Source of the DNA: Kiloniella sp.
GTDB lineage: Bacteria; Pseudomonadota; Alphaproteobacteria; Kiloniellales; Kiloniellaceae
Reading direction: 5' to 3'
Assembly (NCBI RefSeq): GCF_048270245.1
Contig: NZ_JBLWTH010000008.1
Span: 43,839-107,838, forward strand
Length of the DNA stretch: 64,000 bases
A program made the translations under genes and the position numbers. This document shows positions 50,470 through 60,915 of this stretch, piece by piece. Under the pieces are notes generated by a model, which saw only the letters and a program-made list of their open reading frames with translations, was not told the origin of the DNA and did not search any database. Position 1 is the first letter of the stretch; every line of letters starts with the position of its first letter.

Positions 50470-50486
50470 TTTTACCCCTTAACGAA

Positions 50487-50519
50487 CAAAACCCCCGTAG
50501 AAAAACTGCGGGGGTTTTG
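50487..50519. terminator. Bidirectional rho-independent terminator
   Basis: CAAAACCCCCGTAG-AAAAA-CTGCGGGGGTTTTG between convergent genes. Confidence 0.85.
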
Positions 50520-50536
50520 TTGTTTTGGTATGCTAT

Positions 50537-51331
50537 TTAAGGTCGGAAAACCTTCCACCCATTCGCTGTCTTCAACCAAAATGCGCCTTGGGTAATTGTT
50601 GTACGTCCCGTGGCAACATCAGTTTTTTCTTCAAACTGTATTGGTCCTTGATCTTGACTGTTTACAACCTGGTAAGCACGTCCGCCCAATATTTTATTCA
50701 CCTGTACATCTTTGCTTGATTTGATCGTGTATTTACCACTGAGCAATTCAGAAACCATACCCTTGATCATTTCAGGGGGCGGCCCACCAGCAAGAGGTAG
50801 ATCGGTAAACATCGGCTCAAAGAAAGCCATATAACCCTTGGCATCACCGGCCTCTGCGGCGTTACGCATCATCTCTATCGCTTCCAACAATCCTTCATCA
50901 GAGGTAATTTCACCTGTCAGATAACTGAAGGCAGGCTGGGTCTTGGCCTGAAAAATGGCGTTTTGTTCCCCTGCCCCTTGTTGATACAACTCAGCCAGTA
51001 CATTTTCATTCTTACCCGGCTCTTTGGGGAAATCGCCTTCACAAGCAACGAAAACCTCTGCACGCCCTGTGGCATCAGGGCTATCAGTAATCAATTCAAT
51101 CTTGAAATCATTATCCCCCTCTAACAACAGGTTTGCCGGAACAGTATTCGAGTGTGATCCCTTGTGATTTATCAGGATGACGTTATTCACCCTCACTCTT
51201 AATTCTGCTGCGTCACTTCCTTGAAGCGCAACCGCTGTTATTTCCTTACACGCGTGAGTAGGCATTGCAGTTAACCCCATTGATCCAATTGTAACCAGAG
51301 CCAAATAAACAGGCTTCATATTTTTGAGCAT
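50537..51331 (-). CDS. Exported hypothetical protein (beta-rich N-domain, possibly NTF2-like C-domain)
   Basis: Signal peptide ending THA; 264-aa ORF with SD and upstream ECF-like promoters. Fold is a pattern-based guess. Confidence 0.75.
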   Translation of the reverse strand: MLKNMKPVYLALVTIGSMGLTAMPTHACKEITAVALQGSDAAELRVRVNNVILINHKGSHSNTVPANLLLEGDNDFKIELITDSPDATGRAEVFVACEGDFPKEPGKNENVLAELYQQGAGEQNAIFQAKTQPAFSYLTGEITSDEGLLEAIEMMRNAAEAGDAKGYMAFFEPMFTDLPLAGGPPPEMIKGMVSELLSGKYTIKSSKDVQVNKILGGRAYQVVNSQDQGPIQFEEKTDVATGRTTITQGAFWLKTANGWKVFRP

Positions 51332-51433: not shown

Positions 51434-51493
51434 GTCGGACAGCACCCAATGTTTTGTTCACAACTAGGTCGGTCCAACACAAACAACAGTTCA
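51434..51493 (-). promoter_or_regulatory. Two tandem ECF-type promoters
   Basis: TGAACT-N16-CGAC (51493-51468) and TGAACA-N17-CGAC (51460-51434). Confidence 0.65.
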
Positions 51494-51549
51494 AATAAAA
51501 ATATAAAATTTCCATCTAACTGTTTTTATTTCTATAATTCACAAGGGTT

Positions 51550-53160
51550 TTAACAAGTACCTTTGATCAATCCCGCACCGTAAATGGAATCTCGTCCGTG
51601 ATCACCCAAATCAATTACGGAAAAAGACAAGGCCCGAGATAATACCTGTCGTGACATTTTCGGATTATTTTTGAGGATAAGCGACGCAACAGCCAAGGCG
51701 TGTGGTGTCGCAAAGGATGTACCGGAAACATACCCGCCCTTATTCCCCGGCACAGCTGTCCAGATATCCACACCGGGGGCAGCATAATCAATAAAATCCC
51801 CCTGATTGGCATCGCGGTATATCTTGTGACGGGAATCAATGGCTGTAATTGAAAAGACCCCCTCTAAAGCTGCCGGGTAACTTACAGGTGCCTCAGGTCC
51901 TTGATTTCCAGCACTTGAGAAAACAAGGGCGCCTTTTTCTAGCGAAAGAACGAAACCTTTGTTTAACACCCTGTTCGGCACATCAGTACTAAGCGAAACA
52001 TTGATTAAACGCACATGATTTTCAAGCAGCCAATCCAGACCCTGTAATACCGCAACAGTACTCGCCAATTGATCCCCGGAATTGTTCAACCTTAAAACCA
52101 CCGCATTAAATAGCTGTGTTCCGGGTATCAGCCCTTGATAACCATTTTCTTGATTATTACCGATCAAGATAGATCCAATAGAAGTTGCATGACTAAGGTC
52201 AATCGTCTGATTACCCAAAAAATTACGCGATACAATGGCCTGTCCATCAAAAGCAGCGTGGTGCTGATCAATAGCACCATCCAGAAGACCAATGGGGAAA
52301 CCAAGCTGTGTTACCTGACACCCTTGATCCAGATCCCAACCAATCGCTTTTTGTGCATATAAACGAGGTTTTGCAGAAGACGTAAGATCATTATTAAAAT
52401 CAACCTCGGCATTTGGAAAAACAGTTCTCAGCTCTTGAATAACAGCCCCCGCGTTTGTAGATCGGGTCTGGATCAATACTGATTGTAAGGCATCAAGGTT
52501 GTAAACTTCGAGAACAGGTAAACGACGTCTTTGAAGTTCGGAACGAACTGCATTTTCCTGAGCACTATCAACCAGAATAATGACATCCTGTTCGATAGAG
52601 ACATCATTAACCACACTGGTTTCCGTTGGACAGATGCGTACACTTAAACCTGTTTTATCAAATACTTGGCGAGTACTCCTCTTAAAGAAAACAAGGTCAT
52701 ATTTTGTATTTAAATCAATACCCTTTTTAGGTAAATAACTTGAGATCAGAGTATTCTTTTTATTTAGAATATCCAACTCTATCAAATCATGAGTATTACT
52801 TAATCCCAAGCGATAGCTATTTGGAATATCGTCAAAGTTTTTGCCCTGAATGGTTAATATTGTGCCCGGGCGAACGCAGTTTGCTCTTATCCCGGAAAAG
52901 ATAATCTCATCAGATCGATTACCTGTCGGTCGGGACGTAACCGGATCATCAGTTACGGTCCGGGACTTTCCTGTAGATGTCGACGCCCCCGGTATTGGCC
53001 GAGTATTGGGTGTTGCCCTCGTACCTGGAGTGCCAGGTATCGGTGTCGTACCTGGTTCTTCACTCGCGGGATCAGCAGATGTTTGTGCGGGTAAATCCTG
53101 CGGTATTCCAATTGAAAGCAGCAAGAAAACGACGAGAGTTAGAGAATGGCGCAACATCAC
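51550..53160 (-). CDS. S8 subtilisin-family serine peptidase with signal peptide, P/T-rich linker, IPT-like domain and prodomain
   Basis: Triad LLDG / HATSI / SGTSFATP; oxyanion SAGN; IDYAAPGVDIW; DLGDHGRD..YGAG. Confidence 0.92.
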   Translation of the reverse strand: MMLRHSLTLVVFLLLSIGIPQDLPAQTSADPASEEPGTTPIPGTPGTRATPNTRPIPGASTSTGKSRTVTDDPVTSRPTGNRSDEIIFSGIRANCVRPGTILTIQGKNFDDIPNSYRLGLSNTHDLIELDILNKKNTLISSYLPKKGIDLNTKYDLVFFKRSTRQVFDKTGLSVRICPTETSVVNDVSIEQDVIILVDSAQENAVRSELQRRRLPVLEVYNLDALQSVLIQTRSTNAGAVIQELRTVFPNAEVDFNNDLTSSAKPRLYAQKAIGWDLDQGCQVTQLGFPIGLLDGAIDQHHAAFDGQAIVSRNFLGNQTIDLSHATSIGSILIGNNQENGYQGLIPGTQLFNAVVLRLNNSGDQLASTVAVLQGLDWLLENHVRLINVSLSTDVPNRVLNKGFVLSLEKGALVFSSAGNQGPEAPVSYPAALEGVFSITAIDSRHKIYRDANQGDFIDYAAPGVDIWTAVPGNKGGYVSGTSFATPHALAVASLILKNNPKMSRQVLSRALSFSVIDLGDHGRDSIYGAGLIKGTC

Positions 53161-53774
53161 TTCCCACCACTTTCCCCGCCGTTACGTTGTACGGTTTCAA
53201 CCAGATTTTTGTGCGCTTGAAGCTTGGCGATAACAGCTTCAGGATCTTTTGATACAGCCAGCTTATAAACGCCCAGAGATGAAGGGCCATCAATAATACG
53301 AGCATCAACAGCCAATAAAAGTTCGCGAATATTTTCTTCACGTGCCTCTGGAACAAAAGTAACCGACAGCACTGGACCACGGATATAGGCGGCATTACCA
53401 CCACTCGCAGCAACCAAGTCTTTGTTGTTTTGCCACAAGGGCACAACATAAGCCGTCTGGACAAGCAACATAAAACAGGCTGCAACCGCTGCTATCCGCC
53501 ACACCTTATTTTTGATATTATCATTTTGAGGTAAACGTCCGCCCCGTGCTGTTTGCTCTTTTGCAAGATCACGTTGCAAACGCTTCAGACCAAGCTGACC
53601 AGGCGAGCTTTCATGTGTTTGATTTTGAACTTCGTCTCTCAGGTTTTCCAGAAAAGCACATTCATCTCGAAGAGCTTTATCTTGGCTCAAAGCTTTTTTA
53701 ACCGCCTCAAGATCTTCCCCCTGAAGACTACCATTCACATAGAATGGTAAGAGTTCTGAGATTTCCTTTTTCAT
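53157..53774 (-). CDS. Transmembrane anti-sigma factor
   Basis: ELLPFYVNGSL anti-sigma-domain start without HxxxCxxC; one TM (IAAVAACFMLLV); directly follows the ECF gene. Start ATG 53774. Confidence 0.85.
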   Translation of the reverse strand: MKKEISELLPFYVNGSLQGEDLEAVKKALSQDKALRDECAFLENLRDEVQNQTHESSPGQLGLKRLQRDLAKEQTARGGRLPQNDNIKNKVWRIAAVAACFMLLVQTAYVVPLWQNNKDLVAASGGNAAYIRGPVLSVTFVPEAREENIRELLLAVDARIIDGPSSLGVYKLAVSKDPEAVIAKLQAHKNLVETVQRNGGESGGK

Positions 53775-53776
53775 GT

Positions 53777-54328
53777 TCAGCCTCCCATACGGTTGGACAG
53801 GCAACGTTTCATTGCCTGTTTGGCATGGAACATACGGGTCTTAACGGTGTTTTCCGGGCAGTCTACAATCAGTGCAATTTCTGAATAAGGAAGGTCTTCG
53901 AAAAATGCCAGTTGCATCACGGCACGGTGTACTGCTTTTAAGGTATCAAGACAGAACTTGATATGATCACTTTTTTCAGCAGTCAAAAGACATGCCATAG
54001 CATCCGGACTATCATCCGCCGTTTCAGGAAAGTTGTCGCTATCCATTGGTATGTCTGTTTTCTTACGCATCCGATCCACCGTCTTGAAGTATGCTATTCC
54101 AAATAGCCAGGTTGATACTTTAGAACGCCCCTCAAAGGTTTCGGCTTTACGCCATACCTCTAAAAAGGTTTCATTTAGTATGTCGGCGGCTTCGAATGAA
54201 TCGTTCAATTTTGATTTAATAAAAAGATACAGTCGTTTTTCAAACAGATGATAAAAATCAGCAAAGGCGGTTTCATCGCCTTTGCTGACACGTTGAAGAA
54301 GAGAATATGCTGTATCGTTTTCGGTCAT
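53777..54328 (-). CDS. ECF RNA polymerase sigma factor
   Basis: Region 2 (ADILNETFLEVWRKAETFEGRSKVSTWLFGIA) and region 4 (LPYSEIALIVDCPENTVKTRMFHAK). Confidence 0.95.
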   Translation of the reverse strand: MTENDTAYSLLQRVSKGDETAFADFYHLFEKRLYLFIKSKLNDSFEAADILNETFLEVWRKAETFEGRSKVSTWLFGIAYFKTVDRMRKKTDIPMDSDNFPETADDSPDAMACLLTAEKSDHIKFCLDTLKAVHRAVMQLAFFEDLPYSEIALIVDCPENTVKTRMFHAKQAMKRCLSNRMGG

Positions 54329-54337
54329 TAATAATCC

Positions 54338-55531
54338 CTATGGCATATACAACAATTGACGTGGTGAGGAGCCGATAACGCGCCCACTTTTATCAAAAGC
54401 ACGTAATCGCCAATCATAACTTTCCCCTGAATTCAGATTGTCCAAGGAAAAAGCAGAAAGTTTAAGTTTCAAATCCTGAGCGGAAACAACTTTTCCAGAA
54501 ACAACTTCGTCATGTCCCGGAGTAAGTATTTCTACCTGATAGGCAAGTGCACCGGGGACATTTTCCCACGCGAAAACTGTATCCTGATTGACACGGGCAC
54601 CGTTTCCTGGGCTCAAGGCCGTCAAATTATCAGCTGGCCTTTTTGTCGAAGTTTCGAGAACAAAATACCTCAACACAGGTAATTCGGTAATGCCTTCAGC
54701 ATTTTCGACACTAAAGGTTAGCAAATAAAGGCCATTTTTTGTTGTCGGTAATGCCGGGCTTACTATCCTCGTTCTGCCCTGCCCCGAACTCACAACCTGT
54801 TGTCGCACAACCTGTAGAATACGACCTCGCGCACTTCCAAGACTTGCTGTGGGGTCAATAATACGCCATTCGCCCTTTAGAAGACCGCTACTTCTGAAAT
54901 TTATCTCCGCAATGGCTCGTCTCGTATCTCCTTTGGCGATAACGTCTGTTCTAGCATCATTATCAAAACGAAGATCAATACGATTTATACTGAGCGCTCC
55001 CCCCTGACCAGAACCAGCAAAAACAGAAAGTCGCGCCAAGCCTGTTGTTTGCGTATCTGTAAAGGTTCTGGATATCAAAACCGATCCCGCGGGGGCTTCG
55101 GCTATTTTTCGAGCAAGAGCTGAAGAGATTGAGAGAACCTCACTAAAGCGCAACGTTTCACTTTGGGCAGGATTCAAAGTTGACTGTCGAAGCAAAGTAC
55201 CACCAAGCGTCGCGACATTGGTGCCATTAATTTGAAGAATAGCATTTGTCGAACTAACCGGAACTGTTGCCGGAGCTGTTGGCTCTAGCCTTGTAACATT
55301 CCATGTTAACGAAAGGGCAGATGCACCTTTGACATGAACATTAGCGCGTTTGGGCGTCACCGTAACCGAAGTTACATTCGCCTCTGCTATCATTGGGACG
55401 GTCAGTCCAGCTCCGGATATAATACCCGAAACAAAAACCGCTTTAATAGCTAAGCGAAAATGGCGCTTTAACGCGCAAAACCATGTAGGCCTGATACTCT
55501 GTTTCATTTTGGGCACTATCTGCGTTTCCAT
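54338..55531 (-). CDS. Exported multi-Ig/FN3-like hypothetical protein
   Basis: Signal-like segment ending AEA; FN3-like C-terminus (FAWENVPGALAYQVEI...YDWRLRAFD). Start uncertain because it overlaps the upstream gene. Confidence 0.75.
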   Translation of the reverse strand: METQIVPKMKQSIRPTWFCALKRHFRLAIKAVFVSGIISGAGLTVPMIAEANVTSVTVTPKRANVHVKGASALSLTWNVTRLEPTAPATVPVSSTNAILQINGTNVATLGGTLLRQSTLNPAQSETLRFSEVLSISSALARKIAEAPAGSVLISRTFTDTQTTGLARLSVFAGSGQGGALSINRIDLRFDNDARTDVIAKGDTRRAIAEINFRSSGLLKGEWRIIDPTASLGSARGRILQVVRQQVVSSGQGRTRIVSPALPTTKNGLYLLTFSVENAEGITELPVLRYFVLETSTKRPADNLTALSPGNGARVNQDTVFAWENVPGALAYQVEILTPGHDEVVSGKVVSAQDLKLKLSAFSLDNLNSGESYDWRLRAFDKSGRVIGSSPRQLLYMP

Positions 55532-57530
55532 TGAATTCCTCCATTGATCCTCTTAGGGCCAATGCCAAACCAGGGCGATTGGTGCGAGGTTGAAGGAAAG
55601 TCCATTCTACCTCGCTATTAACGATATGACTATCAGATGAGTCGCCACTACCATTCGCAAGGTTCAAATTATAATCAAAATTTAACTCAACTTTTTCTGG
55701 AACAAGTTCCGCTGTCGCCCCTAAATACAGGTTTGTGCTGAAACTGTTTTTATTTGTATCAAGGTCTTCAAACACGCCAAACTGGGTACCACCGTTAAGT
55801 TGCAGTCTATCAGAAACAGTCCAGCCAACATCCAAACCCGTCAAATTGTTAACTGTGTCGCTGGAAATATTTGTATAATCATCAAAACGTGAATAGCTAT
55901 GCGATAAAGACCAATACCATACATCGTAGCTTGATCCTCCGCCCAATGTAATTGACGAAGATAAATTATCTGTATCTCCGCCCTCATAACCATTTGGCGT
56001 TTTAACACGTTCCAAACTGGCAAAGTAACTGTTCATATATAAATAAGGGGTTCCTAACCATTCCCTTGATCCAGTCTGTTGATCAAAAGAATAGTTCATC
56101 CCAAAATCAATACTTTTCAAGCGATCAGTTGGAACGTTCGCGAGACCATCTACATTGTTGGTTTCATGCAAGGCATAGATATTCGCAGATAAAGCGCCCC
56201 AATAAAGATTACTGAAAGCAGTATAGGCATCGCGATCTGATATCATGCCAGGGTTAGCCAGACTTTCAAAGAAAGTATCAACACGGTCATAGCCAAAACC
56301 AACATCAATATTAAGTAGGTCATCACCAATGACGGGCCCTTCATCAAACAATCGATGATCTATCAGTAGTGATACAGCGTCGCTGCTGTCTTTGGGGGCA
56401 TCACCATGATCTCCATCTTGATCAAATAGTGTATGTGCATATTGCGCTTTTAATCTTGTTCTTTGATGACCAAAGCTCTTTTCAACACCGATCCCCCAGC
56501 CAGAACCAGATGCAGAACTATCCAGATCTGAAAGACCAATACCGCTTCCCTCCCCCAAACCATCATAATAGGTGCCCGTTAATTTCAACGCGTCCACATC
56601 AGTTGCAAAGGGTTTTACCGACAGACTAACACCTTTAACACGGTTTTCCGTACTGTTAAGACCAGTCATATCAGCCGCCCCAGAAACGGACTCAGCCCCG
56701 AATGCAAAGCCTTGTGCCTCTACCCTGCTATCACTTGTCCCAATTCGCGCAGAAACACCCCGACGATAAAAGTCTGAAACAAGGAGATTTTCCAGCCCTG
56801 TATCATGGTGCCCCAGTGAAAAGCCACCTGTCAGAGTATCTCCCTGATAATCTGCATTTACGTCATATTCACCCAAATCGATCGTACGTTCTGTCTGCGC
56901 AAAATCGACATCACTTTGTACTAAATAATTCGCATGGGCATCGACCGTCCATTTTCCAGCGGTAAAACCTGAGTTAACATCGCCACTACCCGATAAAGTA
57001 GAACGATTGGTTGCATGTCCAATATTTTGCTGCACGACACGTCGACTGAATTCGGTGAGCGTATCAGCCCGAAAATAAGCCGAACGAAGTAAACGTTCAG
57101 CCATTTCAATCTCAGGGTTGCTTGCACTTAAATCAGAAACATTACCAGCCGATCCTGTGCCATCGCCAGTTATAGTAAAAGTCCATTTCTGCCTTATCTC
57201 TGACGAACCGTCAGGGTTTAGCATTACCAATTTCAATGTGTGTTCATTTCCCTCAAGGGCTTGAAGTGGCTTGTATATAAAATCAACCCCATCAAGGGAA
57301 AGAAGTGACGTAATATCAATACCGTCCAACTCGACACCAAGTTGTGTCAGAGTTATCACATCCAAATCATCCGGAAGATCTATTCGTATTTTTGCATCAG
57401 ATGTTTCTGGTGGTGTAAAATCTGCAATCCAATCGGCCAAGCTTGATTGAACGCATAAAAACGGCAAAAATATTGCCGCTATCAGCGTACCCAAACCATA
57501 TCGATTTTTTTTTCGTTTTTTCAAACGCAC
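55443..57530 (-). CDS. Probable outer-membrane beta-barrel protein with N-terminal Ig-like domain
   Basis: GTG 57530 gives a Lys-rich signal ending SLA; Ig-like segment (VELDGIDIT...HTLKL...WTFTI); many alternating aromatic/Gly strands; terminal aromatic residue (FSLSY). Confidence 0.75.
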   Translation of the reverse strand: MRLKKRKKNRYGLGTLIAAIFLPFLCVQSSLADWIADFTPPETSDAKIRIDLPDDLDVITLTQLGVELDGIDITSLLSLDGVDFIYKPLQALEGNEHTLKLVMLNPDGSSEIRQKWTFTITGDGTGSAGNVSDLSASNPEIEMAERLLRSAYFRADTLTEFSRRVVQQNIGHATNRSTLSGSGDVNSGFTAGKWTVDAHANYLVQSDVDFAQTERTIDLGEYDVNADYQGDTLTGGFSLGHHDTGLENLLVSDFYRRGVSARIGTSDSRVEAQGFAFGAESVSGAADMTGLNSTENRVKGVSLSVKPFATDVDALKLTGTYYDGLGEGSGIGLSDLDSSASGSGWGIGVEKSFGHQRTRLKAQYAHTLFDQDGDHGDAPKDSSDAVSLLIDHRLFDEGPVIGDDLLNIDVGFGYDRVDTFFESLANPGMISDRDAYTAFSNLYWGALSANIYALHETNNVDGLANVPTDRLKSIDFGMNYSFDQQTGSREWLGTPYLYMNSYFASLERVKTPNGYEGGDTDNLSSSITLGGGSSYDVWYWSLSHSYSRFDDYTNISSDTVNNLTGLDVGWTVSDRLQLNGGTQFGVFEDLDTNKNSFSTNLYLGATAELVPEKVELNFDYNLNLANGSGDSSDSHIVNSEVEWTFLQPRTNRPGLALALRGSMEEFNGNADSAQNETEYQAYMVLRVKAPFSLSY

Positions 57531-57612
57531 GCCTGATATTCTCCAAGGCAGACTTCGTACAATTTTACACCAAGATACTATAGAAATCAGTAATTTGAAC
57601 AATAATCCAAAG

Positions 57613-57628
57613 TGTATCAATTGTATCA
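57613..57628. promoter_or_regulatory. Direct-repeat box copy 1 (putative response-regulator site)
   Basis: TGTATCAATTGTATCA; near-identical copies at 59294 and 63266. Confidence 0.55.
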
Positions 57629-57656
57629 GTAAAAGCTGAATTCATTTTCAACGACA

Positions 57657-57695
57657 TAAGAAAAGAGCAGCAGGACCTTATTTTAGACCCTGCTA
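57657..57695 (-). terminator. Rho-independent terminator after the exported-protein gene
   Basis: Minus strand GCAGGGTCT-AAAATA-AGGTCCTGC then TGCTCTTTTCTT; stem includes two G-U pairs. Confidence 0.6.
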
Positions 57696-57713
57696 CATTT
57701 ACTTCACTTTCGT

Positions 57714-59063
57714 TTATTGAGGTGTCTGAATTATCAGGCGTTTGGGTCTTTCAGTTTCTTGTGTTGCTTTACCAAGGGGAGCCCTTTGCGGCTTTTTCTG
57801 CACAGTACCACGTGTATCTGGCATAGTGTCGCTCCCCTGATTTTGATAACCACCCAGTTTGGCATTACTACCATTTACAGTTACCTGAGGTGTACAACGA
57901 TGCTTGAAAGTCGCTGAACCAAACTCTTTCCAAGGCCCATAACTATCACTGTTTTGATCTTTGACTTGAGCTTCAATCGTCATCGCATGTTCATAGGTTT
58001 TATTGATTGTGTTCCACCATTTGAATTGTTGATGATTGTACATTTTTTCAATCAAGGGATAATCAAAATCAAAGTGCCTGTTTATCTGGCTCTCTGAATC
58101 GTAACTGCCCAAATAGATGTTTGGCAGTACAAAATTTCCTTCACTGTTTTTCACATCAATTTTAAAACGGACCGTTCCCTTACCTGCCCCTTTGTAGTTC
58201 ACACGAATTTTAGGGTTAGGCGTCCCTTCGGAACATTTTCCAATATGATGTGGCATGTTTGGCTGAAAAGTTGCCTGATTTAAAAGCAAAGATTGATTGT
58301 TGTTATACTGTGGATTATTGCCCACCTGTCCCAATTGAGCATTCAAAATAGGCTTATCGGTTATAGCGGAGTCACCTTTATATTTGACTTGAATAGTAAA
58401 ATTTTTGGTCTCAAAGCCAGCTTTCCATGGGCTGTGACCTGGCGAGAGATATTTTCTGCACCACCCCGCAAGAGAAACAGGCCTTTGCAGAACGATTTCC
58501 TGATCGTTTTTATAAAAATCTGCTTTCGATCCACCACCTTGTAGGTGGGATTGTAATTTTTTATTGATTTCTTCCAAGGGATCAACGCGAACAGCCGGAT
58601 GGCCATTTTTAATTTGATTTAAAGGAACTGTGAAACTCTCATCACCATCCGTCCCCTCTGTTACCCACTTACCCAAGCCAATGCGGCTTTTATGACTAAC
58701 TTCATAGGAACTTTGATACAGTGCTGCATTATCATTGATGTCATCAACAAACATACCGAGAGGGCCAAAATAAATCTTGGCCTCTTTAAAATCTATTTTT
58801 TTATCATCGCCACACTGTACAAAACCATCGGCTTCGATCTCAATGGATGATTCCTGTATCTGTAAATTGACATTGTTTACAGACTTACTTCCTGAAGTAT
58901 TCTTGACATTAATAACCGCGGCATACCCCGGAAAGTTCAGATCTACATTCTGAACGTACTCAGAGTTTCCACTAGATGCCGCAAAGACAGTGCTTGAAAT
59001 GATAGCACTCGTCCCAAGTGCAGCAGCGCTTACGCCAAGAAGTAACTTTTGAAACTTATTCAT
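57714..59063 (-). CDS. Exported beta-rich hypothetical protein (~449 aa, 4 Cys)
   Basis: AGGAG SD before ATG 59063; Sec signal ending VFA; own promoter and terminator. Confidence 0.85.
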   Translation of the reverse strand: MNKFQKLLLGVSAAALGTSAIISSTVFAASSGNSEYVQNVDLNFPGYAAVINVKNTSGSKSVNNVNLQIQESSIEIEADGFVQCGDDKKIDFKEAKIYFGPLGMFVDDINDNAALYQSSYEVSHKSRIGLGKWVTEGTDGDESFTVPLNQIKNGHPAVRVDPLEEINKKLQSHLQGGGSKADFYKNDQEIVLQRPVSLAGWCRKYLSPGHSPWKAGFETKNFTIQVKYKGDSAITDKPILNAQLGQVGNNPQYNNNQSLLLNQATFQPNMPHHIGKCSEGTPNPKIRVNYKGAGKGTVRFKIDVKNSEGNFVLPNIYLGSYDSESQINRHFDFDYPLIEKMYNHQQFKWWNTINKTYEHAMTIEAQVKDQNSDSYGPWKEFGSATFKHRCTPQVTVNGSNAKLGGYQNQGSDTMPDTRGTVQKKPQRAPLGKATQETERPKRLIIQTPQ

Positions 59064-59121
59064 TTTGTTCTCCTGTATTGTCACTCACTGTTTCGAGTAA
59101 CCCGATGTTGTCGTTACAGGG

Positions 59122-59150
59122 TCTGACGCAATAAGAACGGGAAAGGTTCA
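59122..59150 (-). promoter_or_regulatory. ECF-type promoter
   Basis: TGAACC-N16-CGTCAGA with AT-rich upstream sequence, about 60 nt before the start codon. Confidence 0.7.
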
Positions 59151-59293
59151 AAATAAATAATTTTTATTTCAGATAGTCCCATTTAAGCTATCTCGTTGTT
59201 CTCAATACAGACACCATGATGTACAGAAATTCTATCCCGTTCATCGATGAAAAATAATTTAAACGATTTTGGTATCTGCATTATTTCAGGAAA

Positions 59294-59309
59294 AGTATCG
59301 ATTGTATCA
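59294..59309. promoter_or_regulatory. Direct-repeat box copy 2
   Basis: AGTATCGATTGTATCA, 14/16 identical to copy 1. Confidence 0.45.
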
Positions 59310-59369
59310 AACAGAAGAATGGCACTGTGATATGACCTGCCTTAAACCCAGAGCATAAATAATTAAATT

Positions 59370-59395
59370 TGAACCTGGCTGACCGTCCCTACGAC
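59370..59395 (+). promoter_or_regulatory. ECF-type promoter, divergent
   Basis: TGAACC-N16-CGAC preceded by an AT-rich tract. Confidence 0.6.
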
Positions 59396-59443: not shown

Positions 59444-59665
59444 ATGCCTATTACTCACCTTCAGGATCGCCCCCGAAAAACAGAATTACACATGGGCAAT
59501 ACTATAGTCTTTTCTGACCTATTTGATGATATTATTCCCACCTCCTCCTCTCATAAGGACACACCTTCCTCATTTGGAAACCACAGACAGTTACTTGATA
59601 ATAATACACAACTCTATCTTGCAGCGAACTTGATAAACCTTCACGAAGCACCCATTAATCTGTAA
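59444..59665 (+). CDS. Possible small hypothetical protein (73 aa)
   Basis: AGGA SD and an ECF-like promoter upstream; no recognisable motif. Confidence 0.25.
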   Translation: MPITHLQDRPRKTELHMGNTIVFSDLFDDIIPTSSSHKDTPSSFGNHRQLLDNNTQLYLAANLINLHEAPINL

Positions 59666-59697
59666 ACTTTTCATAGATATGAAAGTAAAGGCTTCCT

Positions 59698-60183
59698 ATG
59701 CTTAAAAGCCTCATATTTATCGGGTTACTTGTAAGTTCAGTTGGTTTTCACTCCATCAAAGGACATGCCAACGCGCAAAAACCTGCCCTGAAAGATCTAA
59801 GCCAAGTATGTGAAGCCGACAGGTACAACCAACCTATCGGGGAATTTTCCGTCGATGTTTATTGCGATGATACCCCCATAATCGGCCCCTATAGCCTCAC
59901 CCAAAGGACATGGCAAGGCGGTGACTGGGCTTTTTCTATCACCAGTTTTATGTGGGGAAATGACAGAAAATCACTTTACGTTGCAACAGAAGGATATAAT
60001 GGAACAGGCAAAGCCTATTACCTAGATATCGAGACACAAACCAGCCAAGAAGTTTGGTCAACTTCTCCCGGTGACTGTGGCAGCGTATTAACAGGAATGA
60101 ATGATAAGAACATCACGCTAGCAACAATTCCCTGCGATGGAAAACAACCCCGAAACATAGAGATCACGATACCTAAGAATTAG
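59698..60183 (+). CDS. Exported hypothetical protein (161 aa, 4 Cys)
   Basis: Signal peptide ending ANA; beta-propeller-blade-like segment (FMWGNDRKSLYVAT...AYYLDI). Confidence 0.65.
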   Translation: MLKSLIFIGLLVSSVGFHSIKGHANAQKPALKDLSQVCEADRYNQPIGEFSVDVYCDDTPIIGPYSLTQRTWQGGDWAFSITSFMWGNDRKSLYVATEGYNGTGKAYYLDIETQTSQEVWSTSPGDCGSVLTGMNDKNITLATIPCDGKQPRNIEITIPKN

Positions 60184-60207: not shown

Positions 60208-60915
60208 TTACCCAAAGACATAACCTATTCCGCGAACGGTACGTATGATTTCTGGTTTTGTCGGATTAACTTCAATTTTACGCCGAAGCCGGGAAATACG
60301 AAGATCGATGGATCGGTCAAAGGGTTCCCACCCTCTATCATGAGCTTGTTCAAGTAATTGATCCCGATTTAAAACACGCCCCCTATTTTCAGAAAAAACA
60401 CGTAAAAGACTAAATTCCATCGCTGTCATGGCAATTTCATTATTATCAGCATCAAGAAGCTGCGCACTATCCAGATCAAGTCTGCACACGCCAAACTGAA
60501 TTGATCCTTTGGTTTTAGCAGATTTTTGCTCTGACAAAGCGCTCGGTATTCTTCGTAAAGTCGCTTTTATTCTTGCTTCCAACTCTCTCAAATCCACAGG
60601 TTTGGCCAGATAATCATCAGCCCCCATTTCCAGTCCGACAATACGGTCAACGACTTCAGATGCCGCCGTCAACATTATAACCGGCACGTCAGAGTTATTT
60701 CGTAAGTTACGAAGGGCAGTCAAACCATCTTCACCGGGCATATTAATGTCTAGGATTACCAAATCAGGAGAATGCTTTTCGGTAAACTTGTGCATCGCTT
60801 TTGCATCGGCGGCTTCAACTGTTTCATAGCCACGATCACTTAAATATTCGGCAACCATTTCACGTAAATGTGGTTCATCATCACAGACAATAATTTTGTA
60901 ACCATTCGCACTCAT
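60208..60915 (-). CDS. OmpR-family response regulator
   Basis: CDDE, ILDINMPG, LTA, ADDYLAKP; wHTH with FDRSIDLRISRLRRKIE and IRTVRGIGY. Confidence 0.96.
   Translation of the reverse strand: MSANGYKIIVCDDEPHLREMVAEYLSDRGYETVEAADAKAMHKFTEKHSPDLVILDINMPGEDGLTALRNLRNNSDVPVIMLTAASEVVDRIVGLEMGADDYLAKPVDLRELEARIKATLRRIPSALSEQKSAKTKGSIQFGVCRLDLDSAQLLDADNNEIAMTAMEFSLLRVFSENRGRVLNRDQLLEQAHDRGWEPFDRSIDLRISRLRRKIEVNPTKPEIIRTVRGIGYVFG

Follow-up and report, generated by a model that had tools for sequence, protein, structure and literature searches.

A likely seven-promoter regulon of an ECF sigma factor in Kiloniella, with two of its promoters embedded in coding sequence

Kiloniella sp. (4.07 Mb, 45% GC) carries on contig 8 a sigma factor gene of the extracytoplasmic function (ECF) type, which lies with genes for a putative anti-sigma factor, an S8 subtilase and several exported proteins, and we analysed this locus within a 64-kb stretch of the contig, referred to below as the window. 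The explanation that best covers all of the data, and in which we have good confidence, is that this sigma factor would serve a regulon of seven promoters, of which five (S1, S2, S3, S5 and S6) lie in the locus and two are unlinked, and that two of the five, S5 and S6, are embedded in coding sequence. ECF promoters often have a GAAC-type -35 and a CGT/GTC-type -10 about 16 bp apart, and the initial annotation had picked out four boxes of this kind. All four strings were confirmed on the sequence, position and strand included; three of them are S1, S2 and S3. The seven sites and the fourth box are as follows.

S1, 59125–59150, minus strand: TGAACC-N16-CGTC followed by AGA; putative promoter of the 449-aa gene, the -10 ending 62 nt before the ATG at 59063
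S2, 59370–59395, plus strand: TGAACC-N16-CGAC followed by CAA; putative promoter of the 73-aa and 161-aa genes, the -10 ending 48 nt before the ATG at 59444
S3, 51468–51493, minus strand: TGAACT-N16-CGAC followed by CTA; putative promoter of the 264-aa gene
S5, 55641–55666, minus strand: in codons 651–660 (DYNLNL..GD, a conserved loop motif) of the 725-aa gene, ~100 nt upstream of the 397-aa gene
S6, 54182–54207, minus strand: in sigma codons 40–50 (KLNDSFEAADI, region 2), ~400 nt upstream of the anti-sigma start
C5:51317, unlinked: precedes the gene of a 248-aa exported CARDB-domain protein
C1:1028001, unlinked, with a CGGC -10: upstream of the gene of a 419-aa protein, paralogous to the 449-aa protein at 40% identity
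Fourth box, 51434–51460, minus strand: TGAACA-N17-CGAC, its TGAAC lying within a conserved block just downstream of S3

The A/T-rich DNA that had been remarked on upstream of three boxes is found at S1, S2 and S3, each with 15/15 A/T in the 15 nt upstream. All three are oriented into a gene, with 48–136 nt between the -10 and the start codon. Distances obtained in the genome scans, which run to the starts of crude longest open reading frames (ORFs), were left out of these promoter-distance results.

The pattern as originally written, TGAACN-N16/17-CG[AT]C, was scanned over the whole genome and gave 114 matches against ~107 expected by our own arithmetic from base composition, so that it is not enriched in this form. 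Eight of the 114 were intergenic on a crude ORF map, and four of these eight fell within the 8-kb stretch of the locus. For the 16-nt spacer, 7 matches were found in the window where 0.68 were expected, with a maximum of 4 in 100 shuffles; five of the seven lay in the locus. When the 114 matches were ranked by A/T content in the 15 nt upstream, the top five (14–15/15) were all in the 8-kb locus and included S5 and S6, both outside the list of the initial annotation. The refined motif TGAAC-N17-CGNC-NN-A had 30 matches genome-wide, and those that were intergenic or had at least 11/15 A/T upstream were exactly the seven sites S1, S2, S3, S5, S6, C5:51317 and C1:1028001. The regulon, which had been described as local, accordingly has two unlinked members. 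A consensus drawn from 30 distinct intergenic sites reads A/T-tract (~10 nt)-TTTGAACC-N16-CGAC-NN-A, and neither its flanking T's nor its A (97%) at the third base past the -10 had been specified in searching for the sites. The top three matches of a position-weight-matrix scan were its own training sites and hence circular; because of this, and of the matches that the matrix gave in shuffled sequence, we relied on the exact core with its A/T tract and on conservation.

Relatives of this sigma factor are encoded in at least 479 stretches of the genome collection. Its orthologs share 79–98% identity within the genus, where K. litopenaei, K. spongiae and K. laminariae are among the carriers of the locus, and orthologs at 42–74% identity occur in Curvivirga, Sneathiella, Methylophaga, Nitrincola, Ruegeria, Pelagibius, Tepidicaulis and other taxa. 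We compared 80–81 related loci from Alpha- and Gammaproteobacteria, which had been collected with two peptide patterns, one of them overlapping S6. Across 80 loci, GAACN-N16-CG[AT]C gave 273 matches on the sigma strand, as against 32–69 for spacings of 15, 17 and 18 (32 for N17) and 34–73 on the opposite strand. The N16 matches peaked at four fixed positions, those of S1, S5, S6 and S3.

Individual sites were conserved in the same elements. At S1, TGAAC and CG were invariant in 11 genomes, and at S3 the -35 and -10 were conserved in 7 genomes, one of which had CGGC; the spacers of both had diverged. S2 was conserved, likewise with a diverged spacer, upstream of the homolog of the 73-aa gene in 5 Kiloniella genomes. 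The motif was present 43–86 nt upstream of the 449-aa homologs in 23/23 loci with enough upstream DNA (protein identity 31–100%) and upstream of the 264-aa homologs in 7/7 loci; over the homolog loci the -35 started 43–226 nt before the start codon. Outside the locus, TGAACC and CGAC of the C5 site were invariant in 10/10 genomes of the genus that have the CARDB gene (48–100% protein identity), and the C1 site, 53 nt before a crude ORF start, was conserved in 6/6 orthologs. The fixed N16 spacing, the orientation and the conservation of -35 and -10 with diverged spacers across many genera support the proposal of the initial annotation that the local ECF sigma factor drives the 449-aa gene, the 264-aa gene and the small rightward genes. 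Its fourth box is unsupported as a promoter: an A/T tract is missing, matches with the N17 spacing run at background, and the CGAC is kept in none of six related genomes that retain S3. A role as a tandem P2 promoter was considered and rejected, the -10 not being conserved.

We further explored the two embedded sites. Among loci whose sequence extends upstream of the 397-aa gene, 48/66 had an S5-type site; S6-type sites were seen in 68/80 sigma orthologs. S6 fits the consensus, down to the A at the third base past the -10, and lies within the sigma ORF on the same strand, ahead of the anti-sigma gene. Codon constraint was assessed at conserved degenerate columns, where the commonest codon was compared with each genome's own codon usage at the locus, in sequences thinned to < 75–80% identity (45 sigma sequences and 33 of the 725-aa gene). 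In the sigma gene, the top five of 72 columns were L41 TTG (z 11.6), I50 ATA (11.4), D49 GAC (6.3), D43 GAT (5.6) and N42 AAC (5.6), which are precisely the -35 and -10 of S6 and the A three bases after its -10. In the 725-aa gene, the top of 185 columns were L652 TTG (z 9.0), D660 GAC (7.5), L654 CTT (6.9) and N653 AAC (6.1); two further outliers (z 6.7 and 5.2) fell on the Shine-Dalgarno (SD) sequence of the overlapping 397-aa gene and thus constitute an internal positive control. The control genes had maximum z values of 6.1 (397-aa), 5.2 (S8) and 3.5 (anti-sigma), with no cluster. TTG, together with ATA in the sigma gene and AAA, was kept in genomes of 66–70% GC, where TTG makes up 4–8% of Leu codons, and AAC and GAC were kept in genomes of 38–45% GC; the Ala, Ser, Phe and Glu codons next to them vary without restraint. 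GC-rich genomes also retain A/T-rich codons just upstream of the S5 -35. These results indicate that S5 and S6 are under selection at the nucleotide level.

S5, within the 3'-terminal part of the 725-aa gene, reads into the operon of the 397-aa and sigma genes and is probably the autoregulatory promoter of the 397-aa/sigma/anti-sigma/S8 operon. The suggestion that classic autoregulation may be absent therefore did not hold up: because S5 points into this operon, autoregulation is probably present. A transcript from S6 presumably could not encode the sigma factor, because no conserved in-frame internal start codon was visible downstream of S6 in the sigma alignment.

The motif co-occurs with the sigma/anti-sigma/S8 module across two proteobacterial classes and not with the response regulator that neighbours the locus. 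Of 81 loci, 79–81 contain the trio of sigma, anti-sigma and S8 genes; the counts are 71 for the 397-aa gene, 67 for the 725-aa gene and 27 for the 449-aa gene, and only 9 for the response regulator. Conservation of the motif together with this sigma factor extends down to 42–47% sigma identity. Within the genome, the closest sigma paralog shares 29% identity, and in genome-wide scans covering the 12 sigma-70 family genes no other sigma gene had the motif nearby. The sigma factor of the locus is thus most likely the one that reads the sites, a dependence that we infer entirely from comparison between genomes.

In one member of the genus (G010), a deletion bordering on a kinase fragment has removed the 725-aa gene's 3' half together with the 397-aa, sigma, anti-sigma, S8 and 264-aa genes. 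The 449-aa gene and its S1-type promoter are still there, the latter intact, and the CARDB gene and the 419-aa paralog are missing. We considered this genome as a counter-example, with the promoter kept and the sigma factor absent, and rejected it as such, since the distal half of its locus was deleted recently.

Several points weigh against the regulon as proposed. The loose pattern occurs at chance frequency in the 4.07-Mb genome, and a mononucleotide shuffle of 2 Mb gave two matrix matches above 18 bits, so that S5 (20.7) and S6 (18.1) are not significant alone. Sequences of orthologs, being related, do not count as independent samples. Both S5 and S6 fall within conserved peptide motifs, and the peptide pattern with which loci were collected overlaps S6, which puts no bias on codon choice. 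Furthermore, no motif lies directly upstream of the 725-aa gene in the Kiloniella genus, and the proposed regulon leaves the control of this gene unexplained; in distant relatives that have no 449-aa gene (loci L023 and L029), a site does lie upstream of the 725-aa homolog. If the boxes had arisen by chance, as fits to a short and degenerate pattern in intergenic DNA rich in A/T, the near-expected genome-wide count and its eight intergenic members would be accounted for, and this appears to be what the fourth box is. For the other sites we put the probability of such an origin close to nil: the window count was never reached in 100 shuffles, the five matches ranked highest by A/T content all lie in one locus, the enrichment is specific to N16, and the presence of the motif in all of the 449-aa and 264-aa homolog loci across genera belongs to a conservation that refutes chance for S1, S2, S3, S5, S6 and both unlinked sites. 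It is more plausible, though still unlikely, that the intergenic sites are promoters while S5 and S6 are kept for mRNA structure, for a translation pause, or by protein constraint with a chance likeness to the motif. Both lie in strongly conserved peptides (DYNLNL..GD and KLNDSFEAAD), their matrix scores are near the shuffle maximum, and S6 is ~400 nt from the next start codon. The constrained synonymous positions, however, coincide exactly with TTGAAC, with CGAC and with the A at the third base beyond it, at N16, and follow the same consensus as 30 independent intergenic sites, with neighbouring codons varying freely and with A/T-rich codons kept just upstream of the -35 in GC-rich genomes; a promoter with a 228-nt leader in Escherichia coli (PMC8595263) offers a precedent.

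Two further alternatives concern the protein that acts on the motif. A PAS kinase/OmpR-type response regulator pair adjoins the locus, and the motif might be a transcription factor site, for example of this regulator, instead of a sigma promoter. We give this a very slight probability, as the motif is bipartite and non-repetitive, keeps its spacer strictly at 16 nt, has an A/T tract upstream and, in the sites measured, always points into the gene; it accompanies the sigma module in 80 loci, where the regulator is rare, and has copies inside the sigma gene itself across two proteobacterial classes. The sites might also be real ECF promoters read, alone or additionally, by another of the ~seven ECF sigma factors of the genome. 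GAAC/CGT-type elements occur in many ECF groups, and the genome has 12 sigma-70 family genes. We consider this improbable, given that no motif lies near the other sigma genes, that the closest paralog is so distant, that the motif follows this sigma factor to low identity, and that the genus member that lost it by deletion is also without both unlinked targets. ECF groups are mostly, though not all, orthogonal (PMC3817407).

The genes and structures of the locus, to which the proposed circuit refers, are these.

449-aa gene, 57714–59063, minus strand: exported protein with a Sec signal peptide and four invariant Cys, of no Pfam family
Terminator-like hairpin 3' of the 449-aa gene, 57667–57696, minus strand: 12 pairs, then a T-rich tail
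725-aa gene, 55443–57620, minus strand: putative outer-membrane barrel, as read from sequence in the initial annotation; C-terminus ...SLSY; the true start is probably downstream of 57620
397-aa gene, 54338–55531, minus strand: exported protein with an immunoglobulin (Ig)-like C-terminal part; ATG at 55531 with a GGAGG SD sequence
ECF sigma gene, 53777–54328, minus strand: 183 aa, sigma-2 and sigma-4 domains
Anti-sigma gene, 53157–53774, minus strand: putative anti-sigma factor of 205 aa, with an anti-sigma-like N-terminal region and one transmembrane helix at about residues 91–114
S8 subtilase gene, 51550–53160, minus strand: 536 aa, signal peptide
264-aa gene, 50537–51331, minus strand: exported protein of no known family
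73-aa and 161-aa genes, 59444–60183, plus strand: the 73-aa product has no signal peptide and has a conserved DLFDDII motif; the 161-aa product has a signal peptide
PAS kinase/OmpR-type response regulator pair, adjoining the locus: response regulator at 60208–60915

The 397-aa gene overlaps the 725-aa gene by 89 nt, 9 nt separate it from the sigma gene, and 2 nt lie between the sigma stop and the anti-sigma start. The sigma protein matches PF04542 and PF08281 above their cut-offs and TIGR02937 with 77 bits (cut-off 42.9); by its size and its possession of sigma-2 and sigma-4 domains only, it is a group IV (ECF) sigma-70 factor. For the anti-sigma protein, the single transmembrane helix was read from the translation by eye, and NCBIfam anti-sigma models match only below cut-off (33 bits against 100). 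Its periplasmic domain resembles the fervidolysin N-terminal prodomain family (E = 7.7e-5), and BLASTP found no similarity between this domain and the neighbouring S8 protein. Sec signal peptides, recognised by eye at the N-termini, are present on the 449-, 397-, 264-, 161- and 536-aa (S8) products and on the unlinked CARDB product; among the non-regulatory products of the locus the 73-aa protein is the one that has none, and the start of the 725-aa protein is uncertain. Sequence searches of PDB, Pfam and NCBIfam gave no matches for the 449-, 725- and 264-aa proteins. An AlphaFold model of the 449-aa protein (predicted local distance difference test score, pLDDT, 75) has two tandem beta-sandwich domains, and the structures that resemble it do so weakly and generically; the Vibrio cholerae biofilm protein RbmA came out highest with a TM-score of 0.18, too weak to name a function. 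No similarity was detected between the 264-aa and CARDB proteins.

We propose that the sigma holoenzyme most likely recognises A/T-tract-TTTGAACC-N16-CG[A/T/G]C-NN-A. It would transcribe the 449-aa gene from S1, the 73-aa and 161-aa genes from S2 and the 264-aa gene from S3. Transcription of the 397-aa, sigma, anti-sigma and S8 genes from S5 would provide positive autoregulation, and S6, with a start at about 54175, would supply the anti-sigma factor and the subtilase without a functional sigma message and could act as a negative-feedback arm. The unlinked sites would add the one CARDB-domain protein of the genome and the 419-aa protein that is paralogous to the 449-aa protein. The single-pass anti-sigma factor may hold the sigma factor at the membrane until an envelope signal frees it, possibly with the subtilase encoded alongside acting on the portion of the anti-sigma factor that lies in the periplasm and resembles a prodomain; the freed sigma factor would then raise expression of its operon and of several beta-sandwich proteins exported by Sec. 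With moderate confidence we extend this to a broader proposal, in which promoters coded into sigma region 2 (KLNDSFEAADI) and into the loop motif of the 725-aa protein, held across Alpha- and Gammaproteobacteria of 38–70% GC, would form hard-wired positive and negative loops that set the sigma : anti-sigma ratio for an exported CARDB-type/beta-sandwich regulon.

The composition of the regulon, in Kiloniella and outside it, is consistent with such an output. CARDB has exactly one match in the whole genome, the gene behind the C5 site. In distant taxa, the other motif-preceded ORFs near the module nearly all begin with a signal peptide, and among 20 sampled, 7–8 carry CARDB, one a Calx-beta and one a TPS domain.

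The nearest known counterpart of the embedded arrangement is the E. coli rseA P3 promoter, which depends on sigma-E and lies within rpoE, 228 nt ahead of rseA (PMC8595263). In both systems an ECF sigma factor activates, or in Kiloniella would activate, its own operon, and a second cognate promoter within the sigma coding region would transcribe only the anti-sigma and downstream genes; the leader is 228 nt at rseA P3 and ~400 nt at S6. The two differ in that E. coli RpoE belongs to a different sigma group (E = 2.6e-15 to the Kiloniella sigma factor) and that the Kiloniella consensus is TTGAACC-N16-CGAC-NN-A, with the internal promoter in sigma-2 codons 40–50. In Kiloniella the probable autoregulatory promoter, too, lies within a coding sequence, that of the gene before the operon, and the partners are a subtilase, the 725-aa putative outer-membrane barrel and an Ig-like protein in place of RseB/RseC; the Kiloniella circuit is a prediction from sequence. 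Among ECF sigma factors with solved structures, Bacillus subtilis SigW (5wuq) and Mycobacterium tuberculosis SigK (4nqw) are the closest, though only distantly related in sequence (E ~1e-19). They share the two-domain ECF sigma factor and a single-pass anti-sigma partner, which in Kiloniella is putative, and differ in the anti-sigma sensor domain, the regulon and the taxonomic range. The SigW promoter has a TGAAAC-type -35 and a CGTA-type -10 at N16 spacing.

Staron and co-workers in 2009 reportedly predicted group-specific ECF promoter motifs from autoregulation. Autoregulation and group-specific promoter motifs are the rule for ECF sigma factors (PMC7826278, PMC3817407), and the motifs described by Rhodius 2013 (PMC3817407) and Casas-Pastor 2021 (PMC7826278) resemble the present one in being bipartite, with a preferred spacer, in standing upstream of the sigma operon and of neighbouring genes, and in being kept with the genomic context. 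The standard procedure scans upstream of operons, and it would miss copies embedded in coding sequence such as S5 and S6. The main text of PMC7826278 makes no mention of subtilase or peptidase contexts, and our literature search found no paper describing a sigma/anti-sigma/subtilase module. The circuit is of an ordinary ECF kind; what is new is a consensus and a membership for an unstudied, widespread module, and unusually clear nucleotide-level evidence for two embedded promoters. The analysis thus supplies a testable promoter consensus and a candidate seven-promoter regulon for this module. It also illustrates that scanning of intergenic DNA only can wrongly suggest that autoregulation is absent, as both proposed feedback promoters are hidden in coding DNA and become visible as synonymous-site constraint. 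CARDB-domain proteins and a new Cys-containing family of two-domain beta-sandwich proteins are nominated as the output of the system, which offers an entry point to its signal and function.

Several minor features were noted in the leaders and elsewhere at the locus. In 11 genomes the leader of the 449-aa gene (window 59060–59124, minus strand) contains an invariant TAAC ~9 nt beyond the -10 and, behind it, a short stem-loop of variable sequence, and the equivalent leader block after S3 holds the TGAAC that had been taken for the fourth -35. The leader of the 419-aa paralog (C1:1028030–1028085) contains a conserved two-tier 5' hairpin with an outer stem CCTCAAC/GTTGAGG, the latter strand holding the likely SD sequence; one compensatory change from C-G to G-C was seen among six orthologs, and the hairpin could serve translational control. 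A terminator-like hairpin of 13 pairs followed by TTTTAT (54257–54289, minus strand) lies within the first 25 sigma codons, upstream of S6, and may be due to chance or be an attenuator. Between the convergent 2247-aa and 264-aa genes, a symmetric hairpin of 16 pairs with T-runs on both sides (window 50485–50521) is probably a bidirectional terminator.

Variation in the module was also observed among relatives. Related Kiloniella genomes (loci L014–L017) have an extra back-to-back promoter pair sharing one A/T tract, ~0.7–1.8 kb upstream of the S1 equivalent; the extra promoter would drive a gene for a 133-aa protein, apparently glyoxalase/VOC-like as read by eye from its N-terminal sequence, and in two of these genomes also a further 449-aa paralog. 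One genome of the genus-level group (G012, contigs C68 and C59) has two diverged copies of the module with 54–55% sigma identity, each with S5- and S6-type sites, and a CARDB paralog lies ~11 kb from one of them. A locus with a 93% identical sigma factor occurs in a metagenome-assembled genome labelled Halopseudomonas aestusnigri, and a 52% relative in a record labelled Oceanobacillus sp.; both are probably mis-binned or mislabelled assemblies.

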